Positions 16,986 through 63,868 of a stretch of 64,000 nt of DNA are shown here, one piece after another; the first letter of the stretch is position 1, and the number at the start of each line of letters is the position of its first letter. A program made the position numbers and the translations under genes. Under the pieces are notes generated by a model. The model was not told where the DNA came from and made no database searches. It was given only the letters and a program-made list of their open reading frames with translations. Origin of the DNA: an uncultured Flavobacteriales bacterium. GTDB taxonomy: Bacteria; Bacteroidota; Bacteroidia; AKYH767-A; 2013-40CM-41-45. The DNA lies in NCBI GenBank assembly GCA_964356415.1, contig CAYHHK010000001.1:38057-102056 (forward strand). Direction: 5' to 3'.

Positions 16986-16987
16986 TC

Positions 16988-41300: not shown

Positions 41301-41361
41301 TTGATTACTATTTTGTAATTAATGGTTGAGGATAATTATTCTAGGCCGAACTAATTGATTT

Positions 41362-47772: not shown

Positions 47773-48557
47773 TTTGAAAGTGCTTTATTATTTTCCCAGA
47801 CGGGTTTTCTTTTCTCTAAAAATGAATTGATGCCTTCATTCGCGTCATGGGTTTCCATCAGTTGCCTTACATACATGCTTTCAAGTTGCTGAAGAAAATT
47901 GGTTAAGACATGATTGAATTTAGCCCGTGATGCTCTTACTGCAAAGCGGAGTGAGGTGGCGCTTTTTGGAATAATTTGATCTGCAATCCATTTTTCAATA
48001 CCTGTATCCATTGTGGCCTTGTCATCAAACAGTTCATTCACCAATCCTATTTGTCTGGCTTCTTCTGCATGAAAGGTCCTTCCGGTAAGAAGTATTTCTT
48101 CTGCCCTTGCCAAGCCGATTTTTTCAGGAAGGATAACTGAAGCAGGAGGGGGGAAGACCCCAAGTACAATTTCGGGCTGCCCGAATCTGGCTGTTTTGTC
48201 GGCAAAAATAAAATTGCACATAATCGCAAGTTCCATTCCGCCACCAAGACATTGTCCTGAAACTTTTGCCAGAGTTGGGATGGACAGATCTCTTAGCGTA
48301 TAAAACAATGCATGAAAATTCTGAAGCATGGTTGAAGCAAATTCTTTTTTATGTTCTTCTACACTTGCCCCAAAGGAAAAATGCTTCCCTGCGCCTTCAA
48401 GAATAATCAGCTTAACCTGGGAATTAGCACGAAATGTATTTAATACAGACTGCAATTCTTCAATCATCACGTGGTCAAGTACATTTCCTTTGCCGTCATC
48501 AAGAATCACATTGATAACAGTATCATTATGGCTGTAAATAATTTTAACTTTTTCCAT
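47769..48557 (-). CDS. enoyl-CoA hydratase/isomerase (crotonase) family; dienoyl-CoA hydratase (Dch)-like candidate
   Basis: 262 aa with crotonase oxyanion-hole segments (LEGAGKHFSFGAS; CLGGGMELA). Function inferred from size and context with had/oah-like genes. Confidence 0.8.
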   Translation of the reverse strand: MEKVKIIYSHNDTVINVILDDGKGNVLDHVMIEELQSVLNTFRANSQVKLIILEGAGKHFSFGASVEEHKKEFASTMLQNFHALFYTLRDLSIPTLAKVSGQCLGGGMELAIMCNFIFADKTARFGQPEIVLGVFPPPASVILPEKIGLARAEEILLTGRTFHAEEARQIGLVNELFDDKATMDTGIEKWIADQIIPKSATSLRFAVRASRAKFNHVLTNFLQQLESMYVRQLMETHDANEGINSFLEKRKPVWENNKALSK

Positions 48558-49660: not shown

Positions 49661-49664
49661 TGTT

Positions 49665-50852
49665 CTAGTTTGTAATTTGTAATTTAAATAAATATTGTTT
49701 TTGGCCTCTCGTTGCTGAAAGTAAATACAACCCCGGTGATAATTCAGAAACATCAATTTGCTTGGAATTCTTTGCTGTCACAACAGGGATTCCTCCAAAT
49801 GAATAAATTTTAATATCTGAGATGCAGTTGTCGGGAGAGTTGATAAATACACAGTTTGTGGATGGGTTCGGATAAATACTTAATTGTTCATTCTGATTTT
49901 CATTTATTGCATCAAGTATGCACCAGGTGATTCCGGAAGATATTGTTCCAAAATTGAAGTCAATGAATGGTGTGGATATTGGCGGGGTTGAGTCGCAAAA
50001 ATCAAAATCTCCCTTCATCCAGCCCCAATTGACCGAGCTGTCGGACACTTGAAAGCTTCCTGTTGCTGTTCCTTTAACGGTATCTGCATTATACCAGCTG
50101 TCGTTCACAATTATTCTTCCGTTGTTATCAAGCGTTGCATTGTGTTGAACTGAATCAGCATTCAGCAGGCTTTTATATAGGATGAAATACCCTGAAGAAA
50201 GGTTCTTAAATATTTCAGTATTCCAGGAACTGTGCAAACAAGTAATGCTATCTGAATTGGTAAAGGTTCCAAGATTTGTAAGATCGGTAAATGTGAGGGT
50301 ATTATTATTTGTGTATTCCCCGGTATTTGTAAATTGATTGTATGTGCAAATCCCATTATTTGTAAAAGTTCCGCCGGTAGTGATACTGTCAATATCCAGG
50401 AAACTGCCGTCGTTGATTATAGCGCCTGTGCTGTATAGACTGTCAATGTTTTGAATGGTTCCTGTATTGGTGAAGTTCACATAGCTCATCAGCGAACGGG
50501 CTGTAAGTGTCCCACTATTCGAAAATGAGCCTGCCTGTACAAACAAGTAGCGTATATCAAGTGTACCATGATTTGTCAGTGTTCCTCCATTTACCAGTAT
50601 GTCCCGTGAAGAATTGTTTTCTATTAGTGATCCTCCTGCATTAATGGTGATTCCTCCGGAAGGGAGATACCAGCCGGTGTCAAGTGCGACAGCGTGGTTG
50701 ATGGTAACTGTAAAGCCGGGCAATGGTATGCAGGTACAACTCCATGTCAACGGGTTCATCCAATTTCCATTTTGAACAGAAGTTGCATTCTGCGAAACAC
50801 CGGAAAAACAAATGGAGAATAAAGCCAGAAGGGTGCTAAGAAATTTGCGCAT
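49665..50852 (-). CDS. secreted beta-helix-like repeat protein with a T9SS C-terminal sorting domain, embedded in the catabolic operon
   Basis: Signal peptide MRKFLSTLLALFSICFSGVSQ, many FTNxGT-type repeats, and C-terminal SIYPNPSTNCVFIN...GLYLLS...LFKLQI. Confidence 0.75.
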   Translation of the reverse strand: MRKFLSTLLALFSICFSGVSQNATSVQNGNWMNPLTWSCTCIPLPGFTVTINHAVALDTGWYLPSGGITINAGGSLIENNSSRDILVNGGTLTNHGTLDIRYLFVQAGSFSNSGTLTARSLMSYVNFTNTGTIQNIDSLYSTGAIINDGSFLDIDSITTGGTFTNNGICTYNQFTNTGEYTNNNTLTFTDLTNLGTFTNSDSITCLHSSWNTEIFKNLSSGYFILYKSLLNADSVQHNATLDNNGRIIVNDSWYNADTVKGTATGSFQVSDSSVNWGWMKGDFDFCDSTPPISTPFIDFNFGTISSGITWCILDAINENQNEQLSIYPNPSTNCVFINSPDNCISDIKIYSFGGIPVVTAKNSKQIDVSELSPGLYLLSATRGQKQYLFKLQITN

Positions 50853-50858: not shown

Positions 50859-51968
50859 TTATTTGAAATCGGGAATAAGAACTGATCGTTTTGAATATTT
50901 ATGCTCAAGAGTATTTCTAAATACTTCATTTATTTTCGACATAGGAAAAGTTTGCACAAACTGTGATATGTTCAGTTTGCCATTGGATATCAGGTCTAAA
51001 ACCTCGGGATATAGTTCTGCCCTGCATCCCCATGTGCCGATGAGTTTGGCGTCATATGCCATCAGGTTGCTTAGCCGGACTTCTGTTTTATCCATTGTGA
51101 AGCCAACAATTGAAAGCGTTGAAGCGTACGTGATAAGGTTAAAAGCCAGATCCTGACCTGCTTTTGTTCCGCTGAATTCAAATATTTTCCATCTGAATTT
51201 TGGCGCATTGATTTCCTTAGCAAGCGCTTTTACTTTTTCTTTGATTGTTTTCTGATCAAGGCTTTTGATATTCAAAACCGCATCTATGCCATTTTCTTTT
51301 GCAGTGGTCAGCTTCGCATCATTGATATCCAGCGCAATTACTTTAGCTCCGAATATTTTTGCGATCAGTGCTCCATAAACTCCTACGCCTCCAACACCGA
51401 TAACAATGGCAAGATCACCCGGTTCCAGTTCTGATTTTTTAATGACCTGATAAGGTGTTGAAATTGCATCAGCAATAACCGCGAGATGTTCGAGTGGATA
51501 TTTATTCAAAACACTTTTTGGAACTTCACATAGAAATTTAGAGGGTACTATTATATGTGAGGAAAATCCTCCCTGGAAATCGTTTCCGGGCATTAATTGA
51601 TTTCTGCAAATATTGCTTCTCCCATTTTTACAGAACTCGCAATCACCACAAGGCAACACGGCAGGAATGATTACTGCTTTATCAAGCCATTTATTATCAC
51701 CGGTAATTACTGTCCCGCTGATCTCATGACCTAACGTCAGAGGAAGTGCATGCTTCGTCTGTACTCCTGCATGCCAAAAGCTGATGTCTGTATGACACAC
51801 ACCGCATCCTGCAATTTTCACAATGACCTCTCCGTCTTTTAATACCGGTAGTGGGTTTTCAATAAGTTGAAATTCCTTGTTGAGTTCAACCATTTGCCAT
51901 TGATGCATTTTTTCGGTTGAAGTAACTTTTGCAGAAGCAAGCTTGATTTTATCAAATGTTTCAGGCAT
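50859..51968 (-). CDS. zinc-dependent medium-chain alcohol dehydrogenase family; 6-hydroxycyclohex-1-ene-1-carbonyl-CoA dehydrogenase (Had/BamQ)-like candidate
   Basis: 369 aa with a catalytic Zn motif (GCGVCHTD), a structural Zn Cys4 (CGDCEFCKNGRSNIC) and a GxGxxG Rossmann motif (IGVGGVGVYG). Confidence 0.8.
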   Translation of the reverse strand: MPETFDKIKLASAKVTSTEKMHQWQMVELNKEFQLIENPLPVLKDGEVIVKIAGCGVCHTDISFWHAGVQTKHALPLTLGHEISGTVITGDNKWLDKAVIIPAVLPCGDCEFCKNGRSNICRNQLMPGNDFQGGFSSHIIVPSKFLCEVPKSVLNKYPLEHLAVIADAISTPYQVIKKSELEPGDLAIVIGVGGVGVYGALIAKIFGAKVIALDINDAKLTTAKENGIDAVLNIKSLDQKTIKEKVKALAKEINAPKFRWKIFEFSGTKAGQDLAFNLITYASTLSIVGFTMDKTEVRLSNLMAYDAKLIGTWGCRAELYPEVLDLISNGKLNISQFVQTFPMSKINEVFRNTLEHKYSKRSVLIPDFK

Positions 51969-51970: not shown

Positions 51971-53233
51971 CTATAGGTTTTTGTTTTCAAAAAGGATAGC
52001 TGTTCCCTGTCCGCCGCCAATGCATGCAGATGCGATCCCATATTTTACTTTTCTGCGTATCATTTCTTTAGAGATGGTGAGAGACAACCGCAATCCTGTG
52101 GCGGCAAGCGGATGCCCTATTGCAATGGCTCCTCCGTTTACATTCAGTTTGGTTCTGTCAATTCCCAGTTCCTTTTCGCAACCGATTACCTGCGCCGAGA
52201 ATGCTTCGTTAATTTCAAGCAGACCAATATCGGAGATATTCAATCCAGTCATTTCAAGCAAAAGTCTGATTGCCGGAACCGGGCCCAATCCCATGTATTT
52301 CGGATCGATGCCACAACTTGCGCCTCCGATTATTTTTGATATTGGTTTTAAATTCTTTTGTGAAACAGTTTGCAAATTTGCAATAACTGCAGCGGCTGCG
52401 CCATCAACAATTCCACTGCAATTTCCTGCCGTAAGAACTCCCACTTTGTCAAACACTGTAGGCAGTTTACCCAGCGCATCCAGCGTTGTGGCACGGATAT
52501 GTTCATCAATTGAAAAGGAGCTTGTTCCTTTTGGGAGAAAAGCTTTTCTTGATTTAAGGCCTTCAATATTAAACGTGGCGGACTGCAACGATGCGATTTC
52601 CTCAGAGAAGATTTTATTTGTTGTGGCATCAATTGCTCTTTGAAAAGAGGTCATTGCATATTCATCGCAGTCATTTCTTGAGATATCATATTTCTTTGCA
52701 ACATTTTCGGCTGTATATCCCATCGGATATCCGGCGGCAGTATCGTCCAGAGCTTCCCAAAGCATATCCTTAAATACAGGCCTGCCTAAGGGATATCCCA
52801 TTCTGTTTCCAAAACTCACAGTAGGGGAGAGTGACATATTTTCTGTGCCAACACAGAGAACTGTGTCTGCTTTTCCCAGAGTGATTTGTTCTGCACCTGT
52901 AATAATTGTTTCAAAGCCTGATCCGCAAATCCTTTGCACCATTAATGCCGGAACTTCAGCCGGGATTCCGCTAAAGAGAGATATGTGGCGTGGAAGAAAA
53001 TAGGAGTCTGTTGAACTTTGTCCGATATTGGCTGCAATCACCTGATCAATTTCATTAGGTTTCACTCCTGATTTTTGCAGCGTGGATATTGCGGCAAAAA
53101 TCCCTAAATCGGTAGGAGAGATTTGGGAAAGCGAACCACAGTATTTTCCAAAAGGTGTCCTTGTTCCGTCGACGAGATAAATGTCGTCGAATATTATTCC
53201 TATTCCTTTATTTATATGATGGTAGGCTTTCAC
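51971..53233 (-). CDS. acetyl-CoA C-acyltransferase (degradative thiolase)
   Basis: RTPFGKY, catalytic Cys (VQRICGSGFE), NVNGGAIAIGHPLAATG and C-terminal CIGGGQG. Apparent GTG start at 53233 overlaps the upstream stop (GTGA). Confidence 0.85.
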   Translation of the reverse strand: MKAYHHINKGIGIIFDDIYLVDGTRTPFGKYCGSLSQISPTDLGIFAAISTLQKSGVKPNEIDQVIAANIGQSSTDSYFLPRHISLFSGIPAEVPALMVQRICGSGFETIITGAEQITLGKADTVLCVGTENMSLSPTVSFGNRMGYPLGRPVFKDMLWEALDDTAAGYPMGYTAENVAKKYDISRNDCDEYAMTSFQRAIDATTNKIFSEEIASLQSATFNIEGLKSRKAFLPKGTSSFSIDEHIRATTLDALGKLPTVFDKVGVLTAGNCSGIVDGAAAAVIANLQTVSQKNLKPISKIIGGASCGIDPKYMGLGPVPAIRLLLEMTGLNISDIGLLEINEAFSAQVIGCEKELGIDRTKLNVNGGAIAIGHPLAATGLRLSLTISKEMIRRKVKYGIASACIGGGQGTAILFENKNL

Positions 53234-55131
53234 TGAATTTCAGTTTTATTTGAAACGGAAGTTTCCGTTTTTAGAAAATGCTGTTTGGCAATGAGCGCTG
53301 CTCCCAATGATGCCATGAATTGTGGATTTTCAACCGATTCAACTTCTTGCTTAAGTTTTAATCCAAGAATATCTCTCAGGTATGGATGGTAGGCGATCAC
53401 TCCTCCAATGAGATAAATGGGGATTCCGGACATGATGCGCAGTTTGGCAACCCGGTTAACAATGGAGAGATAGACGCCTTTTGAAATATCTTCAACACTC
53501 ATGCCTTCTATGAGCCATTTCATGATTTCTGTCTTGGCGAATACGGTACAAAAACTGTTCAGCTCAGTTTTATTGTTGCTGCGGGCAGCAAGAAGGCTCA
53601 TTTCACTGATGTTGAGGTCGGCCCGTTCTGCAATTTCAGTAATGAATGACCCTGTTCCTGCAGCACATTTGTCATTGAGAAAGAAATTCTCTACCTCACT
53701 GTTGATGCCGCAATGGATCACCTTGATGTCTTCTCCTCCTATGTCTATAATGTTCTTTGCACCGGGATAAGAAAAGGAGACCCCTTCTGCCGCACAATTA
53801 ATTTCTGTTTTTACAATATCTGCGTCAGGAAAATTTTTGCGTCCATAACCGGTGGCGCAGCTGGCCTTAATATTAAACTCACTACGGATTGCACTCATTA
53901 CATGCCGCACTCCAATCTTATCGCGGTTGAGTGTTTTAAGTGCTAATTTGAATGCCACTTTCGAATTGCTGTCGAGGACGATAAATTTTGTGTAAGATGA
54001 GCCGAGGTCAACACCCAAAAAATATTCTCCTGAACCTGATTTCTCTCCTTTAATGACTAATCCATTCCTAGCTTTTTGGCCACCGGCACCGCTAAATGAC
54101 TTGCCGATCAATGATGGATCAAGTGATTTCATAAATGCACTGTTGCTGCGAGAGGTCATTGCCTTTACCATATTTGTAACAGCAAGATTGATGGGAGTGC
54201 GGATATAGTGCTTGCGGCCGTACTCAACTATTTTTCCATTCATGAAATCAATTTCAGTTTGCCTGTTGTTTATCAGGTCAACTGCAAGTGAAGGGAAATG
54301 GTCCCCTGCTTTTTTAAGGTAACGCAAACATTTGCGAATGAATTCATCTTCAAATATTATTTTTTCCGCTTTTGCTACTTCCAGTGCCTCTTCAATTACC
54401 AGTTCGATAAGTTCTACGGTATCGGGTATCTCCATTGCTTCCTTTATGGTGAGCTTACCGATTCCGCACAGTGCTGACAAGGAGGAATTCAGGATTGTTT
54501 TTTCCCAGATCTGTTTCAGTAATTCAAAGGATGAGATGAATTTGGTATTCAGATTGACTTTGTTCAGCAAGTCACTTATTTGCTGAGCAGCGCCGGCTTT
54601 TGAATCATCGAGGGAAGCGATGTAATTGGGCGGATTAAAAAATGTGACTTTTACAATATTCGGGGCATTCAGGTTGCCGGCAAAGTTGATCACAAGGCGT
54701 AATGTTTTACTTTCACCAATTCCTGAGGCAAGAATCTGCTCGACATCAATGCCGTTTTGTGCACTTACAAAAATGGTTTTATCAAAATTAAGATTCATCA
54801 CCTGTTCGACGAATGCTGATGTTTGATATCCTTTTATACTCGCTATAATGATGTCAGGGTTGAAATTTCGTAATTCGGTGAGGCTGCTGTAGATGTTATC
54901 AACGAAAATATGTTTCTGTATTGCTCCGTCCAGTTTTATTCCTTCTTTCCTGATTAAATTAATTTTAATTTTATCAAAATCGCATACCGCCACATTACAT
55001 CCGGCTTCTTTCAGATGAGCAGAAAGAATGAGCCCGACAGGTCCCAGGCCTACCACAGCTACTTTTTGTTCTGCCTTTTCATTTCCTGAAGGATCTGGAG
55101 TTTGTGATCTGATATTATTTTCTTCACTCAT
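53230..55131 (-). CDS. fusion protein: N-terminal 2-dehydropantoate-2-reductase (ApbA/PanE)-like NAD(P)H oxidoreductase domain :: C-terminal BadF/BadG/BcrA/BcrD (HgdC-type) ATPase/activase domain
   Basis: 633 aa. The N-terminus carries VAVVGLGPVGLILSAHL plus KPR-like motifs (~aa 20-330). The C-terminus has YFLGVDLGSSYTKFIVLD and CAAGTGSFITEIAE, the acetate/sugar-kinase-fold activase signatures. Confidence 0.75.
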   Translation of the reverse strand: MSEENNIRSQTPDPSGNEKAEQKVAVVGLGPVGLILSAHLKEAGCNVAVCDFDKIKINLIRKEGIKLDGAIQKHIFVDNIYSSLTELRNFNPDIIIASIKGYQTSAFVEQVMNLNFDKTIFVSAQNGIDVEQILASGIGESKTLRLVINFAGNLNAPNIVKVTFFNPPNYIASLDDSKAGAAQQISDLLNKVNLNTKFISSFELLKQIWEKTILNSSLSALCGIGKLTIKEAMEIPDTVELIELVIEEALEVAKAEKIIFEDEFIRKCLRYLKKAGDHFPSLAVDLINNRQTEIDFMNGKIVEYGRKHYIRTPINLAVTNMVKAMTSRSNSAFMKSLDPSLIGKSFSGAGGQKARNGLVIKGEKSGSGEYFLGVDLGSSYTKFIVLDSNSKVAFKLALKTLNRDKIGVRHVMSAIRSEFNIKASCATGYGRKNFPDADIVKTEINCAAEGVSFSYPGAKNIIDIGGEDIKVIHCGINSEVENFFLNDKCAAGTGSFITEIAERADLNISEMSLLAARSNNKTELNSFCTVFAKTEIMKWLIEGMSVEDISKGVYLSIVNRVAKLRIMSGIPIYLIGGVIAYHPYLRDILGLKLKQEVESVENPQFMASLGAALIAKQHFLKTETSVSNKTEIQ

Positions 55132-55148: not shown

Positions 55149-56399
55149 CTATTTAACATTGATCTGTGCTCGCTGCGCTTGTGGATTTCGATGCGAAGCG
55201 TGTTGAATTTGTTCAATAAAGGCTTCAATCTTTGTAATGCTTTGTCCTTCCGAGAAAAATCTCAGGTCACACAAGTCACCTTCAATTACAAGATACGGAA
55301 TCCCTGTTTCGTCTTTTAACCTTTTTGGCAAGCCGAACTTCGCATTTGAATTGTTGAAGCAGGTTTTTGAATCATGAAATATGATGCCATCACAAGAGAA
55401 TTCCTTCAGCCATTTTGCCAACATTTTCATTTTAGCTTTTTCACTCCTGTTGATGAAAATATTTGTATAGGCAAGCGCCGATGATTTAAATGGATCTTTT
55501 TCATCAAACTCATCAAATATCCAGCTGTTGCAATACGTAGATGCAACTACACCGGTGTTGTTCTGAATGAATAAATCAGAAAGCATTCTGTTCTTTCCCC
55601 AGATGGGCATACCATCCCAGAAGATGCGTGATTGTTCTTTTTCAACAACTCCGGTTTTCTTCAAAATATTTTCCTGTAGCTCTTTTAAAAGTGTCTGGTA
55701 ATATTGTTTTGCTGTTTCTGTACCCCGCAACACCACAATGGGCCCCATATGTATGGTTGCATCAAAAAAACTGAGTGGTGCAGGTGATGCTTTAGACGTC
55801 CTTAAAACCTGTTGCCAAAGGAGGGTGGCCTCTTTGCTGAGCAATAAGGTTTCCCTGAAGGAATCAATGTCAAATTGTTTCCCACTGGCTTTTTCACATG
55901 CAGGAATAATATTTTTATGCTGCTGAACACCTGTGGTAATTATTTCCTCTGAAACATCATCCACGTATCTTGGCGGGGTTATACCTGTAATAGGGCAGTT
56001 AAATTCTTTGGCATAAAAGTTAAACCAATCCTGAACTTCCCTGCATTGATTGGTATTGTAAACTATCAGGTCGGGTTTAGGAACGCCTTTCATTCCATAG
56101 TGAGATTGTAAAGGCGTTTTGCCGCTGAGGTAAGAACCGATGTCACTCGTCGTGTATGAGCATATGTGGTTTGAGAAGCCAAGTTTACCCGCTTCAGGAA
56201 TGAAATCGGTAGCGGTACGTGTGGCACCAAGGAGTGCACCGTGATTTTCAGGAAAATATACATTGAACCCAAAAGATCTTAGCAGTTCGGCTGGCCCAAC
56301 GCTTGTACACCATGCGATTTTTCGTTCACCGGTTTCCAATGATCGAAAATATTCGCTCATCACTGCTTTTAATAACTGTGTTGATTTGATTTCGTACAT
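55149..56399 (-). CDS. 2-hydroxyacyl-CoA dehydratase / benzoyl-CoA reductase B/C family subunit (HgdB/BcrC-like), stand-alone
   Basis: HGD-D family features (conserved Cys and C-terminal ...CDLRFF...). The track start at 56471 is TTG. ATGs lie at 56441 and 56399; the latter abuts the ligase stop (TGAtATG) without overlap. Confidence 0.7.
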   Translation of the reverse strand: MYEIKSTQLLKAVMSEYFRSLETGERKIAWCTSVGPAELLRSFGFNVYFPENHGALLGATRTATDFIPEAGKLGFSNHICSYTTSDIGSYLSGKTPLQSHYGMKGVPKPDLIVYNTNQCREVQDWFNFYAKEFNCPITGITPPRYVDDVSEEIITTGVQQHKNIIPACEKASGKQFDIDSFRETLLLSKEATLLWQQVLRTSKASPAPLSFFDATIHMGPIVVLRGTETAKQYYQTLLKELQENILKKTGVVEKEQSRIFWDGMPIWGKNRMLSDLFIQNNTGVVASTYCNSWIFDEFDEKDPFKSSALAYTNIFINRSEKAKMKMLAKWLKEFSCDGIIFHDSKTCFNNSNAKFGLPKRLKDETGIPYLVIEGDLCDLRFFSEGQSITKIEAFIEQIQHASHRNPQAQRAQINVK

Positions 56400-56400
56400 A

Positions 56401-58149
56401 TCAGGTTGCAAATATTCTTCCAACAGTATTTTGAAGTTCATCCAGACGGATGATATAAATTTCTTCTTCAACAGGGTTTTCGTCTCCGTATAAATTTTCC
56501 AGATGCGCTTTGTATGCGCTCACCACATTTCGCGGAGCTACTTTCATGGATGGAGTCAATGTTCCTTTCTCCAGAGAAAGCTCATCATCGATAATCATAG
56601 CAGCTCTTATTTGTGCAAACTTTTGTCCGATGCCACAATTTGCATCATGTAAGCAACCGTGTAAGCATTTGCTGAGTTCATTCAGGTCGCGGGGACAGAA
56701 GCAACCTTCCTCAGGAGAAATGTTGTAGTCAGGATGATTTAAAAGTTTTTTATTTGGGAATAATATGGCAACAGGATAGTCTTGTCCGCTGCCTACTACC
56801 ATGGCGAATGAGATGTAGTGGCATTTCATCTCGATGAGTTTTTCAAGGTCTGACGGAACAACTTTTTCTCCGTTTGACAATTTAAAGATGCGGTCTTTGC
56901 GGGTGATAAGTTTCAGACCATTTTCTGTAATTTCTCCAATATCACCGGTGCAAAACCAGCCATCATCAGTAAATATTCCTGAATTCGCTTCGTCATTTTT
57001 ATAATACCCTTTCATTACGTTGGGACCTTTCACCTGAATTTCTCCGTCATCTGCGAGTCTGATGCTTACTCCGGGCAAAGGACTTCCTACAATACCATGA
57101 TGGCGTTTCTTATTTGGATTTGTGAGCGTACAGCATGGGGAAGTCTCAGTGAGACCCCATCCTTCTATGACTGGTACATGTCTTTTTTCAAATTCGTCGG
57201 AGAGATTTTTAGGAAGCGAAGCCGCTGCAGTGAAAATGAATTTCAATTGGGGATGAAAAAAGAGTTCTTCTGCTTCCTGATCATTTCTTGTAAGATCAAT
57301 AAGTGACTGGTAAACTTTTGGAACGCTGAAAAAGACTGTTGGCTGAATAATTTTCCAGTTTTCCATGAGCACTTTAGGATCTTTTCCATAGCCGGATTCA
57401 AGAGAGATGGTAGCGCCATTGTAAAGTGCCGTGAATAATTCAAAAATACCTCCGAAACTGTGATGCCACGGGAGATAGGAAAGGAAGCGATCAGTGGATG
57501 TTATTTTCAAGACCTTGGATAGCCCTGCTTGTTGTGATAAAATATTTTCATGTGTAAGTTGAACACATTTGGGAATACCCATCGTTCCTGATGTATACAT
57601 GTTCAGACAAATTTCATCAGGTGAAGCATTAGGATCAATTGAAAAACTTGTATCAGAATTAGTTTTTAGCAACTCATCAAAATGGTGCTGATTGTCAAAA
57701 TATTTTTTTTCAATGTTGTCAAAAACAAAAAGATGCCTGACATGAATGTTATTACTGAGTCTGCCTAATTGCAGTTCTCCGGCTACGCTAAGGAATTTTG
57801 CATCAGAATGATTGATGAGTAGTTCTGCCGTTTCCTGATGAAAATAGGCGAAGATGGGAACACTGATTCCACCTGAAACCATCACAGCAAGTTCAAGTTC
57901 AAGCATTTCAAGGCGATTCGGAGAATAAATTACCATCTTATCCCCGGCGATAAAGCCGAATCGCTTGAGGTTAAAAGCAATCTTTAAAATGTCATTGTAG
58001 AAATTGTGCCAGGTGATGCCTTCGAAAATTCCGTTTCTCTTCTCTTGAAAAACAATATTATCCCGAAACGCCCTTACATTGTGATGCAATAACATAGAAA
58101 TGTTAGGAATCATTTTATCCGGCTTAAATTCAGATTCAAGAGTTTTCAT
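56401..58149 (-). CDS. AMP-forming acyl-CoA synthetase/ligase
   Basis: 582 aa with the AMP-binding motif YTSGTMGIPKCV and C-terminal ligase motifs. ATG at 58149. Confidence 0.85.
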   Translation of the reverse strand: MKTLESEFKPDKMIPNISMLLHHNVRAFRDNIVFQEKRNGIFEGITWHNFYNDILKIAFNLKRFGFIAGDKMVIYSPNRLEMLELELAVMVSGGISVPIFAYFHQETAELLINHSDAKFLSVAGELQLGRLSNNIHVRHLFVFDNIEKKYFDNQHHFDELLKTNSDTSFSIDPNASPDEICLNMYTSGTMGIPKCVQLTHENILSQQAGLSKVLKITSTDRFLSYLPWHHSFGGIFELFTALYNGATISLESGYGKDPKVLMENWKIIQPTVFFSVPKVYQSLIDLTRNDQEAEELFFHPQLKFIFTAAASLPKNLSDEFEKRHVPVIEGWGLTETSPCCTLTNPNKKRHHGIVGSPLPGVSIRLADDGEIQVKGPNVMKGYYKNDEANSGIFTDDGWFCTGDIGEITENGLKLITRKDRIFKLSNGEKVVPSDLEKLIEMKCHYISFAMVVGSGQDYPVAILFPNKKLLNHPDYNISPEEGCFCPRDLNELSKCLHGCLHDANCGIGQKFAQIRAAMIIDDELSLEKGTLTPSMKVAPRNVVSAYKAHLENLYGDENPVEEEIYIIRLDELQNTVGRIFAT

Positions 58150-58160: not shown

Positions 58161-59021
58161 TTAAACAGCCAGTGCCTGTTTTTCCAATAACTTTTTATGG
58201 CGATAGCCTCCCCACAAGGCTGCTCCAAGGGCGCCGGCATAAATGGCATCGGGATGCGTTTTTATTTCAAATTTTTTTCCTGTTTCTATTAATTGCTCTT
58301 CAATTGCCTGAATCATTCCTGTGTTTAGTGCCATGCCACCTGTAAGAAAAATAGGGGATGCTGCCTTTAATGAACTCATAAGTTTGATAATTCGGGAGGC
58401 GATGGAAAGATGAATTCCTTTGATGATGTCCGGTGTAGAAATCCCCCTTGATACCATGTTGATTACATCCGTTTCTGCCAATACAGCACATATCCCTGAG
58501 GAAATTTCGGGTTGGTTTGCCTTCATTGACACCTCTCCCACTTCCTCAATGGACAATCCTAAATAGCGCGAAATATTTTCAAGAAACTGGCCTGAACCGG
58601 AAGCGCATTGTCCTGTCATTTTGTAATCTTCCACACGCGCATTCTCACTGATGCGGATTGCCCGCACGTATAAAGCACCAAGATCAACAACGGTTCTTGC
58701 TTCAGGAAAAAAATAATTGGCTCCTCTCGCATGGGTAGTCATTCCATAAAAGTGGCCCCGCTTTTTTTTAACTAAATCGCCTTCTCCTGTGGAGGCAAGG
58801 TATGCAATGTCTTCATATTGAAGATTGTGTTTTGTAAGCATTGCCTGCACCATCTCATCAGCGACTTGTGTAGGGTTGCGTTTCCTTATTTTTTCTGTGT
58901 GCTTGTCATTGATGATGGGATGGTCAGAATAGTCCATTAGTACTAACTTTATGAAGTTGCTTCCGACGTCTATTCCCATTGTGAAATAGGATTTTGACAT
59001 ATTTGAATTATTTTTTATCAT
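58161..59021 (-). CDS. BadF/BadG/BcrA/BcrD-family ATPase, short form (BcrD/BadG-like subunit)
   Basis: 286 aa with the MGIDVGSNFIKLVL ATPase phosphate-1 motif and CASGSGQFLE. It is the last gene of the four-gene reductase cluster. Confidence 0.8.
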   Translation of the reverse strand: MIKNNSNMSKSYFTMGIDVGSNFIKLVLMDYSDHPIINDKHTEKIRKRNPTQVADEMVQAMLTKHNLQYEDIAYLASTGEGDLVKKKRGHFYGMTTHARGANYFFPEARTVVDLGALYVRAIRISENARVEDYKMTGQCASGSGQFLENISRYLGLSIEEVGEVSMKANQPEISSGICAVLAETDVINMVSRGISTPDIIKGIHLSIASRIIKLMSSLKAASPIFLTGGMALNTGMIQAIEEQLIETGKKFEIKTHPDAIYAGALGAALWGGYRHKKLLEKQALAV

Positions 59022-59106: not shown

Positions 59107-59910
59107 TTATGATGATTGCTGTGTGCTGAAGACGAACTTCTTATTTTTAATTTTATTTTCTTTTGTTTCAATTTTCTCAAGTGGGGCATTTATAATGGAG
59201 TAAACACGGTTTTTTAATTCGTCAACACGGTCTTTGGTATAACCCTTTGTATCAATGGGTGCATGGATAATAATCTCTGACATTCCGGGGCCTGATTTCC
59301 CGGTTAATATTCCTTTGCGCTGAATTCTTTTCCAATTGGTTAAAAAAGTAATTGGTAAAATGGGAACTTGCTTCTGAATTGCCAGAGCAAATGCACCGGC
59401 TTTGAATTCACCCATGAGAGGAGCATTTTTCGATACTGTTCCCTCAGGAAAAATTGCCAAAGGATTTCCATTGGCTAATTCTCTTGACATTCTTTTTAGT
59501 GCTTTTATTGATCCACTGGCGTTTTGCCTGTCAACAAGTATATTCATACCTGAGGTGTAAAATATTTTAAACAGTGGCCATTTTTCAATTTCTTTCTTTC
59601 CGGTAAAAACAAAATACCTGTTAAAAGTAGTGTATAGGCAGGGAATGTCAATGAAAGAGGAATGGTTGGGACAAATAATATATCCTCCCTTTTTTGGTAT
59701 GTTATTTCGGCCTTTTACGTATGGAATAATGCCTCCGAGCAGTAAAAGAATCCATCCGAATATGCGCATTAATTTAAATGCATAAGGGTAGCGATCAGGA
59801 CTGTGCAGGAAGTACGAGAATGCAGGATATAAGATAATTAAAGTTACGGTGAACAGTAAAAAATAGTAAATCCTGTATGCTACTTTGAAGGGAAGCAGAA
59901 TGTACCCCAT
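59107..59910 (-). CDS. lysophospholipid (PlsC-type) acyl-CoA-dependent acyltransferase family membrane protein
   Basis: 267 aa with two N-terminal TM helices, an HxxxxD motif (NHSSFID) and FPEGT. Its start lies 3 nt after the stop of the BcrA-like gene. Confidence 0.75.
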   Translation of the reverse strand: MGYILLPFKVAYRIYYFLLFTVTLIILYPAFSYFLHSPDRYPYAFKLMRIFGWILLLLGGIIPYVKGRNNIPKKGGYIICPNHSSFIDIPCLYTTFNRYFVFTGKKEIEKWPLFKIFYTSGMNILVDRQNASGSIKALKRMSRELANGNPLAIFPEGTVSKNAPLMGEFKAGAFALAIQKQVPILPITFLTNWKRIQRKGILTGKSGPGMSEIIIHAPIDTKGYTKDRVDELKNRVYSIINAPLEKIETKENKIKNKKFVFSTQQSS

Positions 59911-59913: not shown

Positions 59914-61323
59914 TTAGTTCTTTGCGGAAACCGGCAATTCCATGTCAACATTTCTTCTTGCAAACATGGCACCCCCAAGCGCTCCCATAAATATTGAATC
60001 GGTATGAATGTTTATTTTGATGTTATCGCCATAGTTTTCTTTTACCAGTTGCGTGAGATATTTAATTACTGCCTGGTTGCGTGCAACACCTCCTGTGAAA
60101 GTGAATTCATTGTAAACGCCTCCTGAACGCGCGATGAGAGACATGGCCCGCATAATTATGGCTTTGTGCAAGCCGCCAAGAATGTCAGCTCGCTTTTCAC
60201 CAAGATTGGTCAGTTCGCGCAATTCAGCTCCAGCAAATACTGTACATGTGGAGCAAATAGTTACTTCTTTCTCTGCCTCTAATGCCAGGGGACCTAATTC
60301 ATTTAATGAAATGCTCATTTCATCAGCAATATAACCGAGGTAGCGTCCACATCCGGCTGCACATCGATCATTCATTTGAAAACTGGTTACAAGACCGTAT
60401 TTATCCACTTGTATCGCTTTGGTGTCTTGTCCGCCGATGTCAAGTACTGTTCTTGTATCAGGAAAAACAGCATGGGCTCCAAATGCATGACATAAAATCT
60501 CTGAGCGAATGCATTCTTGCGGAAACGGAAGCAAGGCGCGACCATATCCTGTCCCTGTCATATTTTCTATTTCAAATTCAATATCTGCAATTTCGTCAAT
60601 GTGTTCACGTAGAGATTCGGATACGTGGTCAAAATTTCCTTTAAGTAAATTCAGTTCAGCATCAAAATTCACACTTGTATTTTCCGCGGATGTGTCAGGA
60701 AGGTTTTTGTATTTTTCTTTAAGCTCATCCATTGCTTTGTGCACAAGCTCTTTGAAGTCAAATTGAACTCGTTGGTTTTCTGATGGACTTATGCTCTTGT
60801 CCCAGACTGTCATCAATGGCTCAAAAAGTGAAATGTCGAGTTTGTTTACTTCCTCGTTGTAACGTTCAGAAACGGTATCGCGAAAGAATTGATTTTTTGC
60901 TCCAAGGTTATTATACAAATATTCATGTTTGATTTTTGGCTTAAAGGCCCTGCGTATATTCCTCAGGTGATTCAATATTTCTTCCCTCTTTTTTTCATCA
61001 GTAAAGAAGACATGACAGGTTTTTACAAGTTCATCTCCAAGTTTATCTAAACGAATTCTGAATTGCTCGTACTGAAATACACTTTCAAGGTCAGTAATAT
61101 ATTTGTTGTATTCAGGCTTTGCTTTTAGTTCTGCTTCCAGTTTTTTCTTGAGTACAGAAAATCGTGCATTGTAAATTGCTTCATCCTTCGCAATGTCAGC
61201 TGCCACTGAATAGTTTGCACGGGTATTTGTGATACCACGGCCTATGATTTCATCTTGTTCATTAATGATGACTGCTTTTGATGTTGTTGAGCCAAGGTCA
61301 ACGCCGAGATAATACTTGTTCAT
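59914..61323 (-). CDS. BadF/BadG/BcrA/BcrD-family ATPase, long form with an internal insertion (BcrA/BadF-like subunit)
   Basis: 469 aa. The N-terminal YYLGVDLGSTTSKAVII and C-terminal CAAGCGRYLGYIADE are separated by a ~200-aa helical insert, as in the larger ATP-binding BCR subunit. Confidence 0.8.
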   Translation of the reverse strand: MNKYYLGVDLGSTTSKAVIINEQDEIIGRGITNTRANYSVAADIAKDEAIYNARFSVLKKKLEAELKAKPEYNKYITDLESVFQYEQFRIRLDKLGDELVKTCHVFFTDEKKREEILNHLRNIRRAFKPKIKHEYLYNNLGAKNQFFRDTVSERYNEEVNKLDISLFEPLMTVWDKSISPSENQRVQFDFKELVHKAMDELKEKYKNLPDTSAENTSVNFDAELNLLKGNFDHVSESLREHIDEIADIEFEIENMTGTGYGRALLPFPQECIRSEILCHAFGAHAVFPDTRTVLDIGGQDTKAIQVDKYGLVTSFQMNDRCAAGCGRYLGYIADEMSISLNELGPLALEAEKEVTICSTCTVFAGAELRELTNLGEKRADILGGLHKAIIMRAMSLIARSGGVYNEFTFTGGVARNQAVIKYLTQLVKENYGDNIKINIHTDSIFMGALGGAMFARRNVDMELPVSAKN

Positions 61324-61347: not shown

Positions 61348-62649
61348 TTAAGCCGAAACTACTCCCTGTGACATAATTATTTTTCGTTGCTCCAGCATCT
61401 GAAAATATGATTCAAGCCGGTTCTTAATATTTGCATATGAAAAATAGCGGGGATCAACCAAATCACTTTCGATGAAACCAACAGGAACACCACATCTTTG
61501 TTCGATTTCCCGCATCATTAATAATTGTCCTGCTGAAAATGAATTGCAGCTTTTGATTGAGTTGATTAAAAATCCGTCCGCTTTATACTCTTTAATATAG
61601 TGTTCAATTAAATCTACCCGTTGTGGCAAATTCAGGTTGGTGTAGCAGCCCATACAATATTTTGCAAGGCTCTCAAGGGGATTTTCAGGATCATGACGGA
61701 AACCTCGGTCATAAACACCACCGACTTTTGTATAAGTCGATGCGACAATCACAGCACCCATGTCATAAAATATTTTCCAAAACTCACGGAAGTTTGTCCA
61801 GTTTGGGGGACCTTCAACTACAAGTCGATATTTTTCTTCTTTTAATTCTCCTTCCGGGTTAATCGGAAGTAATCCCTTTTTAAGACGGTCATCCACTTCG
61901 TTGTATAATTCCTGATAGTATTCAAGTGCAATATCAGTTCCCCTGAACGCTGTGTTTAGAGGGCCCATATAGTACACGCCGGCGAAATATGAATCTATTG
62001 GCGAGGGTTTGTTTTTTGCGGATTCAAGAACCTTTACCCACAAATCTTCTGACTTGGCTGAGTTCTCAAGCATTTTTGAAAGGCGGTCGTAATCCAGTTT
62101 CTTTCCAGCAACTTTTTCCATCTTCGGAATCACTTCTTCTTTCAGCTGCTTCACCATATAGGTGACTTGATCGTCTGTTATTTTTCCATCTTCCTGATAT
62201 GGCGTATGCAGCATTGCAATCTCAACTCCGGGATATAATTTTTCGAGATTTTCAAACCACTTCATGAATGTGAAGCAACCAGTGTAGCTTAATAATAATA
62301 AGTCTGGCTCAGGAAGTTTTTCACCGGTAGGGCCAATATTGCCGTTGAGCATCATGCCAATGTCACACTTAACATAGGTGCATACGTCTTCGCTGAATCC
62401 GATTTTTTCAGCATCTTTAATGTATGAACCGGATTTTTTTCTCATGCCGGACTGAAGTGCATTTATTTCAGGGTAAACAGGCAGCATATCCAGTGCGAGA
62501 ATCAGTTCTGTTATGTTTCCCGGCACAAATGTGTACACGACCTTTTTACCATTCTCTTTTGCAGTACTAAGTTCAGTAAAAAGATTGCCAAGCATCTCTT
62601 TCTGAATGACCATGCTTTTTTCCTTTATTGCTTCCTTTGGATTGCTCAT
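61348..62649 (-). CDS. benzoyl-CoA reductase B / 2-hydroxyacyl-CoA dehydratase alpha-type subunit (BcrB/BadE/HgdA-like)
   Basis: 433 aa with HGD-D family features (GKKVVYTFVPGNITELILALDMLPVYPE) and conserved Cys. Confidence 0.8.
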   Translation of the reverse strand: MSNPKEAIKEKSMVIQKEMLGNLFTELSTAKENGKKVVYTFVPGNITELILALDMLPVYPEINALQSGMRKKSGSYIKDAEKIGFSEDVCTYVKCDIGMMLNGNIGPTGEKLPEPDLLLLSYTGCFTFMKWFENLEKLYPGVEIAMLHTPYQEDGKITDDQVTYMVKQLKEEVIPKMEKVAGKKLDYDRLSKMLENSAKSEDLWVKVLESAKNKPSPIDSYFAGVYYMGPLNTAFRGTDIALEYYQELYNEVDDRLKKGLLPINPEGELKEEKYRLVVEGPPNWTNFREFWKIFYDMGAVIVASTYTKVGGVYDRGFRHDPENPLESLAKYCMGCYTNLNLPQRVDLIEHYIKEYKADGFLINSIKSCNSFSAGQLLMMREIEQRCGVPVGFIESDLVDPRYFSYANIKNRLESYFQMLEQRKIIMSQGVVSA

Positions 62650-62704: not shown

Positions 62705-63868
62705 TTATGCCCATAATTTTATTGAATCCGAAAACGTACCGGCCTGTTCTTTTATTACCTTGAATTGTCCCGTGTTTTCATGAAACTGGAAGTTGATATG
62801 ATTAAGACCTGCTTTATCACATGCCTTTTGTAGTTCCGGGCGATCAAGCAATGCCGGGTCACAAAAACTTGCTGCACAGAAAATGACTCCGTCTGCTTTT
62901 CTACTTATTGCTAAATCAACCAGGCGTTTCCCTTTGGGATTGCCAACGTCATATATTGCAGACGAGAAAACACTTTTTTGAAGAAAGGCATTGACTATTT
63001 CATTGACCGGATTTTCGGTAGTCGAATCAATATCACCCTGAATCCACCTTGATCCGAGCATAAAATCATCATCAATGATGTAGCATCCTGACATTTCAAT
63101 GGATTTAATTAATCCGATTGGTGGTTGTTCACAGAATGAACCTGAAATGATTACTCTTATATTATCCATTGGCTCACCTGATTCATGACGAATCAGGTTA
63201 AGCACTTCTTCAAGAACTTCATTGTGTCTTTCAACCGGAATTACCATTCCTGCACGAACGATATGGTAAACGTCAACAGCAGATAAACGCCATGGATATT
63301 CCTGGCGGATATCATAGATTGCTTCAATCAGTTTCCGGTTTCTGTTGTAGAGAGAAATGGAATGATTGAGTTTTTCGGGAGTAACTTTCACTCCATTTAG
63401 TTGGAACATATCATCCATTACTGTTTCAATCAGCTCGCGATAAAAAACCCCGCCGATGAGTGCATCAAAATTCTGCGGGTAATCAAAGTAGCGTGTAAAT
63501 TTCCCCTTCTTCACAATTTTAAACATTCCGGAAAGATTTCGTACGCAATCGCAGATTGCAGGAAAAAGAAAGCCATCAAAGTCATCAAGATTATGATCGA
63601 GCGCCATTTCTATGATGCCGCGGGGCAAATGACATATGTAGGATTGGTAATAGGCATCTCCTTTAATGATTTGTTTGCGGTCTCCAACTCCCATAATTCC
63701 TACCGGTAATGCATTTGCTGCATGAATGATTTCGCGCGGAACATAAATAGGAAGGTAACCAACAAGCAAGCGGTTAGGAGATTCCTTCTTCCATTCCTTT
63801 GCTGATGAAAAATTCAGGTCGAAAGCCAGTTCGCGACACATTTTCGTTATTTCTTCAATTGACCCCAT
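62705..63868 (-). CDS. benzoyl-CoA reductase C / 2-hydroxyacyl-CoA dehydratase beta-type subunit (BcrC/BadD/HgdB-like)
   Basis: 387 aa with HGD-D family features and conserved Cys (AICDCVRNL; GVIFCAASFCDP). It is the first gene of the cluster. Confidence 0.8.
   Translation of the reverse strand: MGSIEEITKMCRELAFDLNFSSAKEWKKESPNRLLVGYLPIYVPREIIHAANALPVGIMGVGDRKQIIKGDAYYQSYICHLPRGIIEMALDHNLDDFDGFLFPAICDCVRNLSGMFKIVKKGKFTRYFDYPQNFDALIGGVFYRELIETVMDDMFQLNGVKVTPEKLNHSISLYNRNRKLIEAIYDIRQEYPWRLSAVDVYHIVRAGMVIPVERHNEVLEEVLNLIRHESGEPMDNIRVIISGSFCEQPPIGLIKSIEMSGCYIIDDDFMLGSRWIQGDIDSTTENPVNEIVNAFLQKSVFSSAIYDVGNPKGKRLVDLAISRKADGVIFCAASFCDPALLDRPELQKACDKAGLNHINFQFHENTGQFKVIKEQAGTFSDSIKLWA

Follow-up and report, generated by a model that had tools for sequence, protein, structure and literature searches.

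Radical 2-hydroxyacyl-CoA dehydratases and class I benzoyl-CoA reductases (BCRs) represent textbook examples of ATP-driven low-potential electron chemistry. The characterised members of the 2-hydroxyacyl-CoA dehydratase/benzoyl-CoA reductase (HAD/BCR) superfamily that convert CoA esters are all alpha-beta pairs, in which the beta subunit relays the electron, and the assignment of a protein to the alpha or the beta type matters because the CoA ester is bound by the alpha subunit. Reviews and the 2025 structure paper on BzdNO describe only heterodimeric HAD/BCR enzymes, the homodimeric double-cubane cluster protein (DCCP) and TudS. DCCP, a homodimer (PMC7317905), has a channel that is too narrow for CoA esters. 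Here we describe a gene module in a 64,000-nucleotide stretch of a contig from an uncultured Flavobacteriales bacterium (the window), which consists of an AMP-forming acyl-CoA ligase, a lone HGD-D protein and a fusion of a ketopantoate reductase-family (KPR) domain with an activase domain (KPR::activase; Table 1). The lone HGD-D protein and its orthologues are referred to as sHGD. The module fits no characterised class: it is not a canonical dehydratase, as it has no beta subunit and no CoA-transferase and scores below the equivalog cut-off, and sHGD is neither a BCR catalytic subunit nor a DCCP. Our analysis indicates that sHGD is probably an autonomous, single-gene, homodimeric enzyme of the alpha type. 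The further proposal that it is a dehydratase forming, with the KPR domain and the ligase, an entry module from 2-oxo acids to enoyl-CoAs is one that we hold to be evenly balanced between right and wrong.

sHGD is a member of the HAD/BCR superfamily and is of the alpha, or catalytic, type. Its full-length match to the Pfam model HGD-D (PF06050) scored 207 bits against a cut-off of 28.4 and covered residues 34-398. By BLASTP, sHGD was 27% identical to the window BcrB over the full length (E 4e-50), and it had no significant match to the window BcrC. Among the NCBIfam models, the highest score was obtained with that of the HadB alpha subunit (NF052455; 213 bits, equivalog cut-off 750), followed by those of BcrB (TIGR02260; 158 bits, cut-off 487), BzdO (TIGR03191; 68 bits, cut-off 449) and the double-cubane protein (64.5 bits), all below cut-off. 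The PDB relatives ranked in the order of HadB alpha, MbdO, BzdO and DCCP, all the sequence matches being of the alpha type or DCCP, and the match to HadB alpha (3o3m_A; ~26-30% identity) had an E value of 8e-47 with the single sequence and 1.8e-63 with the family profile. An AlphaFold model of sHGD (pLDDT 85.7), which was derived from a shallower alignment (A2) and informs fold and secondary structure only, superposed best, by Foldseek, on HadB alpha (TM 0.87-0.92), with MbdO and BzdO (0.84-0.86) and DCCP (0.75) following and the beta-type subunits MbdN, HadC and BzdN ranking last (0.67-0.71). These matches of sequence and fold are far beyond chance. The sequence-only reading, an earlier annotation of this DNA, had called the protein HgdB/BcrC-like, and this label is wrong, since BLASTP, hidden Markov models, PDB relatives and fold comparison all place it with HadB, HgdA, BcrB and BzdO. 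The names given to the family in databases are likewise inconsistent ("BcrC/BadD/HgdB", "bcr-type subunit B" and "2-hydroxyacyl-CoA dehydratase"), and gene-based surveys can miscount sHGD as a benzoyl-CoA reductase subunit.

The residues expected of a catalytic subunit are present in sHGD. Cys80, Cys119 and Cys347 align with Cys95, Cys128 and Cys380 of BzdO, the three ligands of the active-site [4Fe-4S] cluster, and Glu51, in the motif FPENHG, aligns with the catalytic Glu65 of BzdO and with the PEN motif of HadB (BzdO numbering from PMC11971306). All four are invariant in 79 sHGD orthologues (52-100% identity), and so are two further residues, Cys31 and Cys290, which are considered below.

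The surroundings of sHGD were compared by a scan of one genome per species, in which 192 loci with an sHGD relative were detected and the best 80 were fetched; locus ORFs (open reading frames) were labelled by BLASTP against the window proteins, and gene linkage was seen within ±10 kb per genome. All the loci examined belong to uncultured metagenome-assembled genomes (MAGs), mostly of Bacteroidota and Ignavibacteria, from groundwater, lakes and wastewater. Four contexts were found. The Bcr-type context, present in 51 of the 63 loci with adequate flanks (Bacteroidota, Ignavibacteria and Calditrichia), has the order BcrCBAD, ligase, sHGD, KPR::activase, thiolase, Had, Oah, Dch and hydratase/dehydrogenase, with MobA, XdhC and a short-chain dehydrogenase/reductase (SDR) downstream or divergently upstream. 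The Bzd-type context was found in four loci of Bacteroidota and Ignavibacteria MAGs (L048-L051; e.g., L049, 464-9981). Here, BzdN and BzdO, both of which exceed their equivalog cut-offs, make up a complete reductase cluster with two ATPases, ferredoxin and an oxidoreductase of 853 amino acids resembling BzdV. Behind this cluster lie an ADP-forming synthetase, the sHGD orthologue (66% identity), KPR, a HisC-type aminotransferase (TIGR01141; 317 bits, cut-off 277), a second KPR, MobA, XdhC, KorABC and the FAD subunit of a Mo enzyme. The PVC-type context comprises 11 loci of Planctomycetota, Verrucomicrobiota, Kiritimatiellia and Kuenenia as well as an archaeal bin. In this context, an sHGD of 52-55% identity occurs with an activase and without BCR, and the two are usually flanked by an AMP-forming ligase, a FadB-like hydratase/dehydrogenase, an MBL-fold protein and a FabH-like protein. 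The fourth, fusion-type context is that of P0121, a KPR::sHGD fusion of 55% identity with all five Cys residues; in its locus (L082), KPR::sHGD is followed by an activase, a three-subunit Mo enzyme of the xanthine dehydrogenase family, XdhC and MobA, and there is no BCR or ligase within 10 kb.

As the sequence-only reading had supposed, sHGD is not accompanied by a partner HGD-D gene. An hmmsearch of all the ORFs of the window yielded only BcrC, BcrB and sHGD as HGD-D proteins, and there was no second HGD-D ORF within ±10 kb of sHGD in the 11 PVC-type loci and L082. A beta partner hidden nearby was also sought by hmmsearch with profiles of sHGD, BcrB and BcrC/BzdN in the window and 81 loci, and none was found. 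Of the two options that had been offered for the solo subunit, a homodimer is the better supported, because orthologues of 52-55% identity occur with an activase in the absence of BCR or a second HGD-D protein, and recruitment of BcrB/BcrC is disfavoured by these same BCR-free PVC-type and L082 contexts. In addition, sHGD is as well conserved next to Bcr-type as next to Bzd-type reductases, two groups with a mutual identity of only 22-26%. Because it thus persists without HGD-D neighbours and is conserved beside both BCR types, sHGD is not an accessory of one particular BCR. We infer that a homodimer, as in DCCP, is the simplest architecture. These observations also bear on the idea that sHGD is an alternative catalytic subunit which pairs with BcrC, is driven by BcrAD or the fused activase, and confers a second substrate specificity. 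We give this idea only a slight chance: it would be consistent with the shared alpha type of sHGD and BcrB and their 27% identity, and with the Bzd-type loci, where sHGD might use BzdPQ in place of a dedicated activase, but the orthologues without BCR genes nearby, the retention of a dedicated activase in more than 50 loci and the equal conservation beside such dissimilar partners argue against it.

The constant companion of sHGD in the BCR-linked loci is the KPR domain. The N-terminal domain of KPR::activase is defined by PF02558 and PF08546 and scored 152 bits with TIGR00745 (cut-off 141), and its PDB relatives were 2ew2, 8wl1 and 3wfi (1e-26 to 1e-20), with E. coli PanE (1ks9) at only 1e-4. 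Its translation shows a GxGxxG motif (GLGPVG), a Lys motif (WEKTILN) and a Glu motif (TEID), the Lys and Glu of which we take to have the roles of Lys176 and Glu256 of E. coli PanE. 3WFI is, as we take it, the structure of a D-mandelate dehydrogenase. By sequence, the domain appears to fall in the branch of the KPR family that holds the D-2-hydroxyacid (D-mandelate) dehydrogenases. The family includes D-mandelate dehydrogenases that convert bulky 2-keto acids to D-2-hydroxy acids (PMC4230899, citing Wada et al, 2008). The C-terminal activase domain scored 168 bits with TIGR00241 (CoA_E_activ; cut-off 125), had HadI (4eht; 1.7e-42) as the best PDB match, followed by MbdQ, HgdC and DCCP-R, and carries both Cys motifs for the bridging [4Fe-4S] cluster (NDKCAAGTG and NSFCTVFA). 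The KPR domain is fused to the activase in 47 of the 63 loci with adequate flanks, is encoded as a free neighbour in the Bzd-type loci and in the Bcr-type loci L067, L068 and L071 (Zixibacteria, Chromatiales and Fidelibacterota; KPR and activase being separate genes in these three), and is fused to sHGD itself in P0121 (L082). Two different gene fusions and the conserved adjacency indicate that KPR acts in the same pathway as sHGD. The module had been described as minimal; it does have its own activase, tightly linked in one operon, but the label undersells it, since the KPR partner is constant and a Mo enzyme recurs. A further scheme, in which KPR, activase and sHGD together would serve as an electron pump from NAD(P)H to low potential for BCR or the Mo enzyme, was considered and rejected, because KPR is without the flavin for hydride splitting.

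A CoA-ligating enzyme adjoins sHGD in all BCR contexts. Orthologues of the ligase (50-81% identity) immediately precede sHGD in every Bcr-type locus but L040 and L043, in which an ADP-forming acyl-CoA synthetase of 714 amino acids fills the slot (L043, 7835-9976; L040, 857-2998) and a ligase remnant of 162-164 amino acids (43% identity) is left between sHGD and KPR::activase (L043, 11219-11710; L040, 4248-4733). The ADP-forming synthetase is a non-orthologous replacement, which was found in 6 loci. Homology did not reveal the specificity of the ligase, as NCBIfam and PDB gave only generic, below-cut-off matches: the best NCBIfam model was a long-chain-fatty-acid-CoA ligase subfamily (225 bits, cut-off 476), the PDB relatives were oxalate, malonyl and feruloyl-CoA ligases (~1e-32), and among the 25 best of 103 NCBIfam hits there was no benzoate-CoA ligase model and none that passed its cut-off.

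In known 2-hydroxyacyl-CoA dehydratase pathways, the reduction of a 2-oxo acid to an (R)-2-hydroxy acid is the opening step, and the mechanism has been summarised (PMC8473912). In the module, gene context provides a KPR-family reductase and AMP- or ADP-forming CoA activation, with no CoA-transferase. The aminotransferase of the Bzd-type loci and the adjacent CoA-ligating enzyme suggest the sequence of amino acid, 2-oxo acid, (R)-2-hydroxy acid, CoA ester and enoyl-CoA. In the pathway that we propose, the KPR domain would reduce a 2-oxo acid to the (R)-2-hydroxy acid with NAD(P)H, the ligase would convert the latter to its CoA ester at the expense of ATP, and sHGD, after reduction of its active-site [4Fe-4S] cluster by its own ATP-hydrolysing activase in the C-terminal half of KPR::activase, would dehydrate this ester through a ketyl radical to the (E)-2-enoyl-CoA, which the hydratase/dehydrogenase and thiolase of the operon could then shorten. 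A ligase instead of the clostridial CoA-transferase would be logical, because beta-oxidation consumes the enoyl-CoA and leaves no product thioester as a CoA donor. Arylpyruvates derived from Phe and Tyr would be the most economical substrates, given that the neighbours are BCR, beta-oxidation enzymes and a Mo enzyme resembling 4-hydroxybenzoyl-CoA reductase (4-HBCR), and perhaps half of the weight that we place on the dehydratase proposal falls on them. HisC-family aminotransferases accept aromatic amino acids. Phenylpyruvate would accordingly be processed via phenyllactyl-CoA and cinnamoyl-CoA to benzoyl-CoA, and 4-hydroxyphenylpyruvate via 4-coumaroyl-CoA to 4-hydroxybenzoyl-CoA and, by the 4-HBCR-like Mo enzyme, to benzoyl-CoA, so that both series would feed the co-encoded BcrCBAD reductase. 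It is the dehydratase rather than reductase chemistry, the direction, the substrate, the cluster type and the role of the extra Cys residues that we infer in this proposal.

Several points weigh against it. With regard to the subunit structure, the characterised dehydratases are all alpha-beta heterodimers, in which electrons enter via the beta subunit (PMC8473912), sHGD lacks the canonical alpha-beta pair of adjacent genes, and a beta partner may be encoded beyond ±10 kb; the score with the HadB equivalog model also falls far short of the cut-off. With regard to the pathway, the known ones rely on a CoA-transferase and on a dehydrogenase of the 2HADH family rather than on a ligase and KPR, and the ligase could simply be the benzoate-CoA ligase of the operon, which has no other ligase. 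The components are, moreover, not all present in every context, the Bzd-type loci being without a dedicated activase and the PVC-type loci without KPR. A plain dehydratase would leave the two extra invariant Cys residues unexplained. Finally, the KPR::sHGD fusion and the ligase-free unit of L082 fit an action of KPR on a CoA ester better than one on a free acid.

This last point leads to a route in which all intermediates are CoA esters: the ligase would activate an aromatic or heteroaromatic acid, the Mo enzyme, of the xanthine dehydrogenase family, would hydroxylate the resulting acyl-CoA, the ring would open to a 2-oxoacyl-CoA, KPR would reduce this to the (R)-2-hydroxyacyl-CoA, and sHGD would dehydrate it to a product such as glutaconyl-CoA, joining the lower benzoyl-CoA pathway. 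The conversion of 2-furoyl-CoA to 2-oxoglutaryl-CoA by HmfABCDE provides a model. The compact unit of L082, in which KPR::sHGD, activase, the three-subunit Mo enzyme, XdhC and MobA stand together with no ligase or BCR within 10 kb, speaks for such a route, and MobA/XdhC and a Mo enzyme adjoin the module in Bcr-type and Bzd-type loci as well. In the window, the fusion of the gamma ([2Fe-2S]) and alpha subunits of the Mo enzyme (930 amino acids) scored 828 bits with TIGR03194 (cut-off 995) vs 568 bits with the next model, XdhA, and its FAD/beta subunit scored 200 bits with TIGR03195, so that neither reached the equivalog cut-off for 4-HBCR. In the FAD subunit there is a Cys-rich insertion of 38 amino acids, CENRC...C...C..C...C (C119, C123, C139, C142, C147 and C156), which is typical of the reductive 4-HBCR and speaks against this route. 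The spacing of Cys123, Cys139, Cys147 and Cys156 is presumably that of the extra [4Fe-4S] cluster of Thauera HcrB. The Mo enzymes of L082 (41% identity) and the Bzd-type loci are without this 4-HBCR-specific insertion and may thus be ordinary hydroxylases. The Bzd-type aminotransferase, on the other hand, suggests that the 2-oxo acids are free, the operon showed neither a lactone or CoA-ester hydrolase nor a glutaconyl-CoA decarboxylase, and we know of no KPR-family enzyme that acts on CoA esters. On balance, we regard the all-CoA-ester route as quite unlikely.

The direction of the reaction is open to a different interpretation, in which the module would work in reverse, converting glutaconyl-CoA to (R)-2-hydroxyglutaryl-CoA, to 2-hydroxyglutarate with gain of ATP, and to 2-oxoglutarate, from which a neighbouring 2-oxoacid:ferredoxin oxidoreductase would regenerate the two molecules of reduced ferredoxin required by BCR for each ring. 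The electron stoichiometry would then balance. KorAB/POR-type genes are indeed located behind the operon in L001 and the Bzd-type loci, but they also accompany canonical bcr clusters, and the ADP-forming synthetases that replace the ligase in the 6 loci usually run toward acid and ATP, but the AMP-forming ligase of most loci normally runs toward the thioester. Likewise, the operon is without glutaryl-CoA dehydrogenase, but the window has an acyl-CoA dehydrogenase elsewhere (1514-2644), which also weakens the simpler notion that the module is a substitute for the absent glutaryl-CoA dehydrogenase. Given, in addition, that the PVC-type and L082 contexts are without the benzoyl-CoA pathway and that we know of no precedent for physiological operation in reverse, this interpretation appears very unlikely to us.

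The two extra Cys residues of sHGD bear on the kind of chemistry it may perform. The [8Fe-9S] double-cubane cluster of BzdN is bound by Cys36, Cys73, Cys100, Cys263, Cys293 and Cys327 (PMC11971306), to which Cys39, Cys76, Cys103, Cys266, Cys297 and Cys331 of the L049 BzdN correspond. The sHGD motif KIAWC31TSVGPAELL matches GYFC39TYVPEEIL of the L049 BzdN, and VVASTYC290 matches VVIDDHC266 of BzdN and VVGEETC of DCCP, with the result that five of the six double-cubane ligand positions of BzdN and DCCP carry an invariant Cys in sHGD, whereas the sixth (Cys297 of BzdN; VNCAC in DCCP) is occupied by Asn317/Arg318. Because hhalign of sHGD with beta-type subunits aligned only residues 159-383, the correspondence of Cys31 rests on the local motif, KIAWCTSVGPAELL vs GYFCTYVPEEIL, and not on a global alignment. 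Among 1,604 sHGD relatives in 1.84 billion representative proteins (244 below 1e-30), the pair of Cys31 and Cys290 was confined to the sHGD clade, down to ~36-42% identity, and in the ordinary alpha-type relatives position 31 is V/I/L and position 290 is T/P/S. Gly35, also specific to the clade, stands where BzdO/HadB have a Trp/Phe that takes up the room of the lost sub-cluster. Cys31 and Cys290 could bind an enlarged cluster in which one iron is open, form a dithiol/disulfide pair, or donate hydrogen or protons.

These features can also be accommodated by a reductase. sHGD would then be an ATP-stoichiometric enzyme like BCR or DCCP, which reduces, dearomatises or dehydroxylates a CoA ester, such as a substituted benzoyl-CoA or a dienoyl-CoA, with Cys31 and Cys290 as hydrogen or proton donors or as ligands of the enlarged cluster. 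Such a role would be in line with the five retained ligand positions (PMC11971306), with Gly35 in place of the space-filling residue, with the embedding of sHGD in BCR operons of two types, and with the combination of one HGD-D protein and one activase, which is the arrangement of DCCP/DCCP-R (PMC7317905); the reductase subunit MbdO also has a Cys at position 31. Against this, sHGD is closer, in both sequence and fold, to the alpha subunit of the dehydratase than to a subunit of any reductase, and the score with the double-cubane model is far from its cut-off of 350 bits. The active-site His131 of BzdO, which lies beside the water ligand (PMC11971306), is replaced by Val122 in sHGD, as it is by Val in HadB; the window BcrB is also without His at this position. 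A reductase would furthermore leave no role for the constant KPR partner or the aminotransferase, and the PVC-type loci are without genes for an aromatic pathway. We therefore consider a reductase unlikely and retain dehydration as the preferred function of sHGD. The narrower assignment of sHGD as a true DCCP was rejected on the NF040772 score (64.5 bits vs 350) and the absence of one of the six ligand Cys residues.

A paralogous clade of HGD-D proteins with 32-41% identity to sHGD was also observed (P0128, P0148, P0147, P0149, P0163 and P0178). These proteins are without the three [4Fe-4S] ligands, Cys80 being replaced by Ser/Gln, Cys119 by Gly and Cys347 by Ser/Thr/Asn, and P0128 and P0148 start with a KPR domain, to which the cluster-less HGD-D domain is joined. 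Several proteins of the clade retain Cys31 and/or Cys290; both are present in P0147 and P0149, which hints at a role of the two residues that is independent of the cubane.

The genes of the module are part of a 17-gene minus-strand series that runs from 63868 down to 43584 (Table 1); all the genes are co-oriented with spacers of -17 to 85 nucleotides and, therefore, form one operon. The ORFs for the ligase, the 416-amino-acid HGD-D protein and KPR::activase were all present on the minus strand where the sequence-only reading had placed them. Of the two junctions it reported at sHGD, TGAtATG is indeed that between the ligase stop and the sHGD start (cctGAtATG; 1-nucleotide spacer), by which the two genes are translationally coupled, but GTGA does not lie at sHGD: it is formed by the KPR::activase stop, which overlaps the GTG start of the thiolase gene (caGTGAaa). 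The spacers between sHGD and KPR::activase and between BcrD and the ligase are 17 and 11 nucleotides, respectively. With a TTG further upstream as the start, the sHGD ORF would have 440 amino acids (55149-56471, minus strand), and one database record has a call of 430 amino acids; both versions overlap the ligase gene, the latter by 41 nucleotides. Because the orthologues of ~405 amino acids align from residue 1, the start was taken as the ATG at 56399.

Table 1. Positions in the window of the genes and domains described in this study.
Feature	Position	Strand	Assignment or remark
BcrC	62705-63868	-	TIGR02263 above cut-off
BcrB	61348-62649	-	TIGR02260 above cut-off
BcrA-like ATPase	59914-61323	-	439 bits, below BcrA equivalog cut-off of 578
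PlsC-type acyltransferase	59107-59910	-	inserted gene
BcrD	58161-59021	-	TIGR02261 above cut-off
AMP-forming acyl-CoA ligase, 582 aa	56401-58149	-	Pfam AMP-binding (E 5e-63) and AMP-binding_C_3
sHGD, lone HGD-D protein, 416 aa from ATG	55149-56399	-	Pfam HGD-D (E 6.5e-61)
KPR::activase fusion, 633 aa	53230-55131	-	Pfam ApbA, ApbA_C and BcrAD_BadFG
KPR domain, residues ~22-328	54148-55068	-	Pfam ApbA and ApbA_C at residues 24-325
Activase ("archerase") domain, residues ~371-615	53287-54021	-	Pfam BcrAD_BadFG (8.7e-36) at residues 372-615
Thiolase	51971-53233	-	Thiolase_N/C
Had	50859-51968	-	TIGR03201 above cut-off
Type IX secretion system (T9SS)-tail protein	49665-50852	-	inserted gene; Por_Secre_tail
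Oah	48560-49756	-	TIGR03200 above cut-off
Dch	47769-48557	-	228 bits, below cut-off of 292
3-Hydroxyacyl-CoA dehydrogenase/enoyl-CoA hydratase fusion	45766-47772	-	3HCDH and ECH
MobA-like	45146-45769	-	NTP_transf_3
XdhC	44311-45162	-	XdhC domains
SDR	43584-44321	-	adh_short
NarGH(J)I nitrate reductase, two c-type cytochromes, ScdA/hemerythrin protein, carbonic anhydrase, molybdenum cofactor (Moco) biosynthesis set	32899-41934 and 14113-20976	-	
4-HBCR-like Mo enzyme	8523-12298	-	fused gamma-alpha 9506-12298; FAD/beta 8523-9473

Some peculiarities of the operon and its vicinity were also noted. The gene for a PlsC-type 1-acylglycerol-3-phosphate acyltransferase between those of the BcrA-like ATPase and BcrD is missing from most related operons and is located elsewhere in the operon in L012. 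A saccharopine-dehydrogenase-like gene recurs in the operon region of 8 Flavobacteriales loci and, in L062 (6059-7249), occupies the same slot between BcrA and BcrD, just upstream of the latter. The Had-Oah pair is split by a gene whose product ends in a T9SS sorting domain and homologues of which are found at the same position in L027 and L038. In the BcrA-like ATPase (469 amino acids; orthologues 473-477), the Pfam match covers 450 residues for a model of 271 positions and, therefore, indicates a large insertion. The DNA has a G+C content of ~40% and encodes proteins with T9SS sorting domains, and proteins identical or close to those encoded here are labelled Bacteroidia/Bacteroidetes, all of which marks the source as a Bacteroidota MAG. 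The 4-HBCR-like Mo enzyme is separated from the aromatic operon by the Nar genes, the cytochromes and the Moco set (MoaA, MoaC-MoaB, MoaE, MoeA, MoeB-like and MobA). Caprolactamase/acetophenone-carboxylase-like hydantoinase A and B subunits are grouped with a TrpB-like pyridoxal phosphate enzyme at 3107-8464 (minus strand), and this trio lies directly downstream of KPR::activase in L028, L039, L044 and L046. A peptidase-U32-family gene at 12528-13769 (minus strand) recurs near the BCR operon in 7 loci (e.g., L039, 1-1266); U32 proteins are implicated in O2-independent hydroxylations in other systems.

In the full-text literature, neither the module nor a fusion of KPR with an activase nor an alpha-type dehydratase made of one subunit was found to be described, and a 2026 paper only hypothesises a route to benzoyl-CoA through a phenyllactyl-CoA dehydratase in an unrelated sulfate reducer. 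A more far-reaching picture may be drawn, which we put forward tentatively and consider unlikely as a whole: sHGD would be the first homodimeric member of the HAD/BCR superfamily that converts CoA esters, an evolutionary intermediate between double-cubane proteins and alpha subunits, with an enlarged Fe-S cofactor (five Cys ligands and one open iron site) or with catalytic Cys31 and Cys290, and would open with KPR a new anaerobic route for the 2-oxo acids of Phe and Tyr (or 2-oxoacyl-CoAs) to benzoyl-CoA. If this is the case, such a route would occur widely among uncultured members of the Bacteroidota, Ignavibacteria and other phyla, and a lone subunit of the catalytic type would show how the heterodimers originated from homodimeric double-cubane ancestors, as in the scheme of PMC11971306. 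It would also offer a simpler system for mechanistic studies and for the engineering of bio-based enoates, adipate precursors and cinnamates. Aromatic degradation by these groups has been inferred from bcr genes alone, and knowledge of what the module supplies to BCR would change how their metagenomes are read.

Compared with known systems, the module most resembles the (R)-2-hydroxyisocaproyl-CoA dehydratase HadBC with its activase HadI from Clostridioides difficile (3O3M/3O3N and 4EHT; also HgdAB/HgdC, FldBC/FldI and LcdAB). HadB shares the three Cys ligands and the Glu of the PEN motif with sHGD, HadI is the closest relative of the module's activase, and a 2-oxoacid reductase is encoded alongside in both cases. 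In contrast, the module is without a gene for a beta subunit of the HadC/HgdB type, has a ligase or ADP-forming synthetase instead of the CoA-transferase and a KPR-family reductase fused to the activase or to sHGD, and adds the invariant Cys31, Cys290 and Gly35; moreover, its host is a nitrate-respiring degrader of aromatic compounds and not an amino-acid fermenter. The catalytic subunits of class I BCRs (BcrB of the Thauera type, BzdO, 8S02, and MbdO, 9G87) have the same alpha fold, [4Fe-4S] ligands and Glu, and a genuine BcrCBAD is encoded in the same operon, but sHGD is only 27% identical to BcrB, scores below the BcrB and BzdO cut-offs, has Val at the His131 position, and is without a partner of the N/C type or a heterodimeric ATPase of its own. 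With DCCP/DCCP-R of Carboxydothermus hydrogenoformans (6ENO and 7YZM) and YjiM/YjiL of E. coli, the module shares the logic of one HGD-D protein and one activase, which is homodimeric in DCCP-R; only the C-terminal half of sHGD can be aligned with DCCP (E 3e-9), however, the sixth ligand position is not Cys, and sHGD groups with the alpha subunits that bind CoA esters. As for the family of D-mandelate dehydrogenase and ketopantoate reductase (3WFI and 2EW2), the N-terminal half of KPR::activase comprises both KPR domains and is closest to structures of the D-mandelate dehydrogenase type, but, unlike in that family, it is fused here to an iron-sulfur ATPase and, in P0121, to sHGD.

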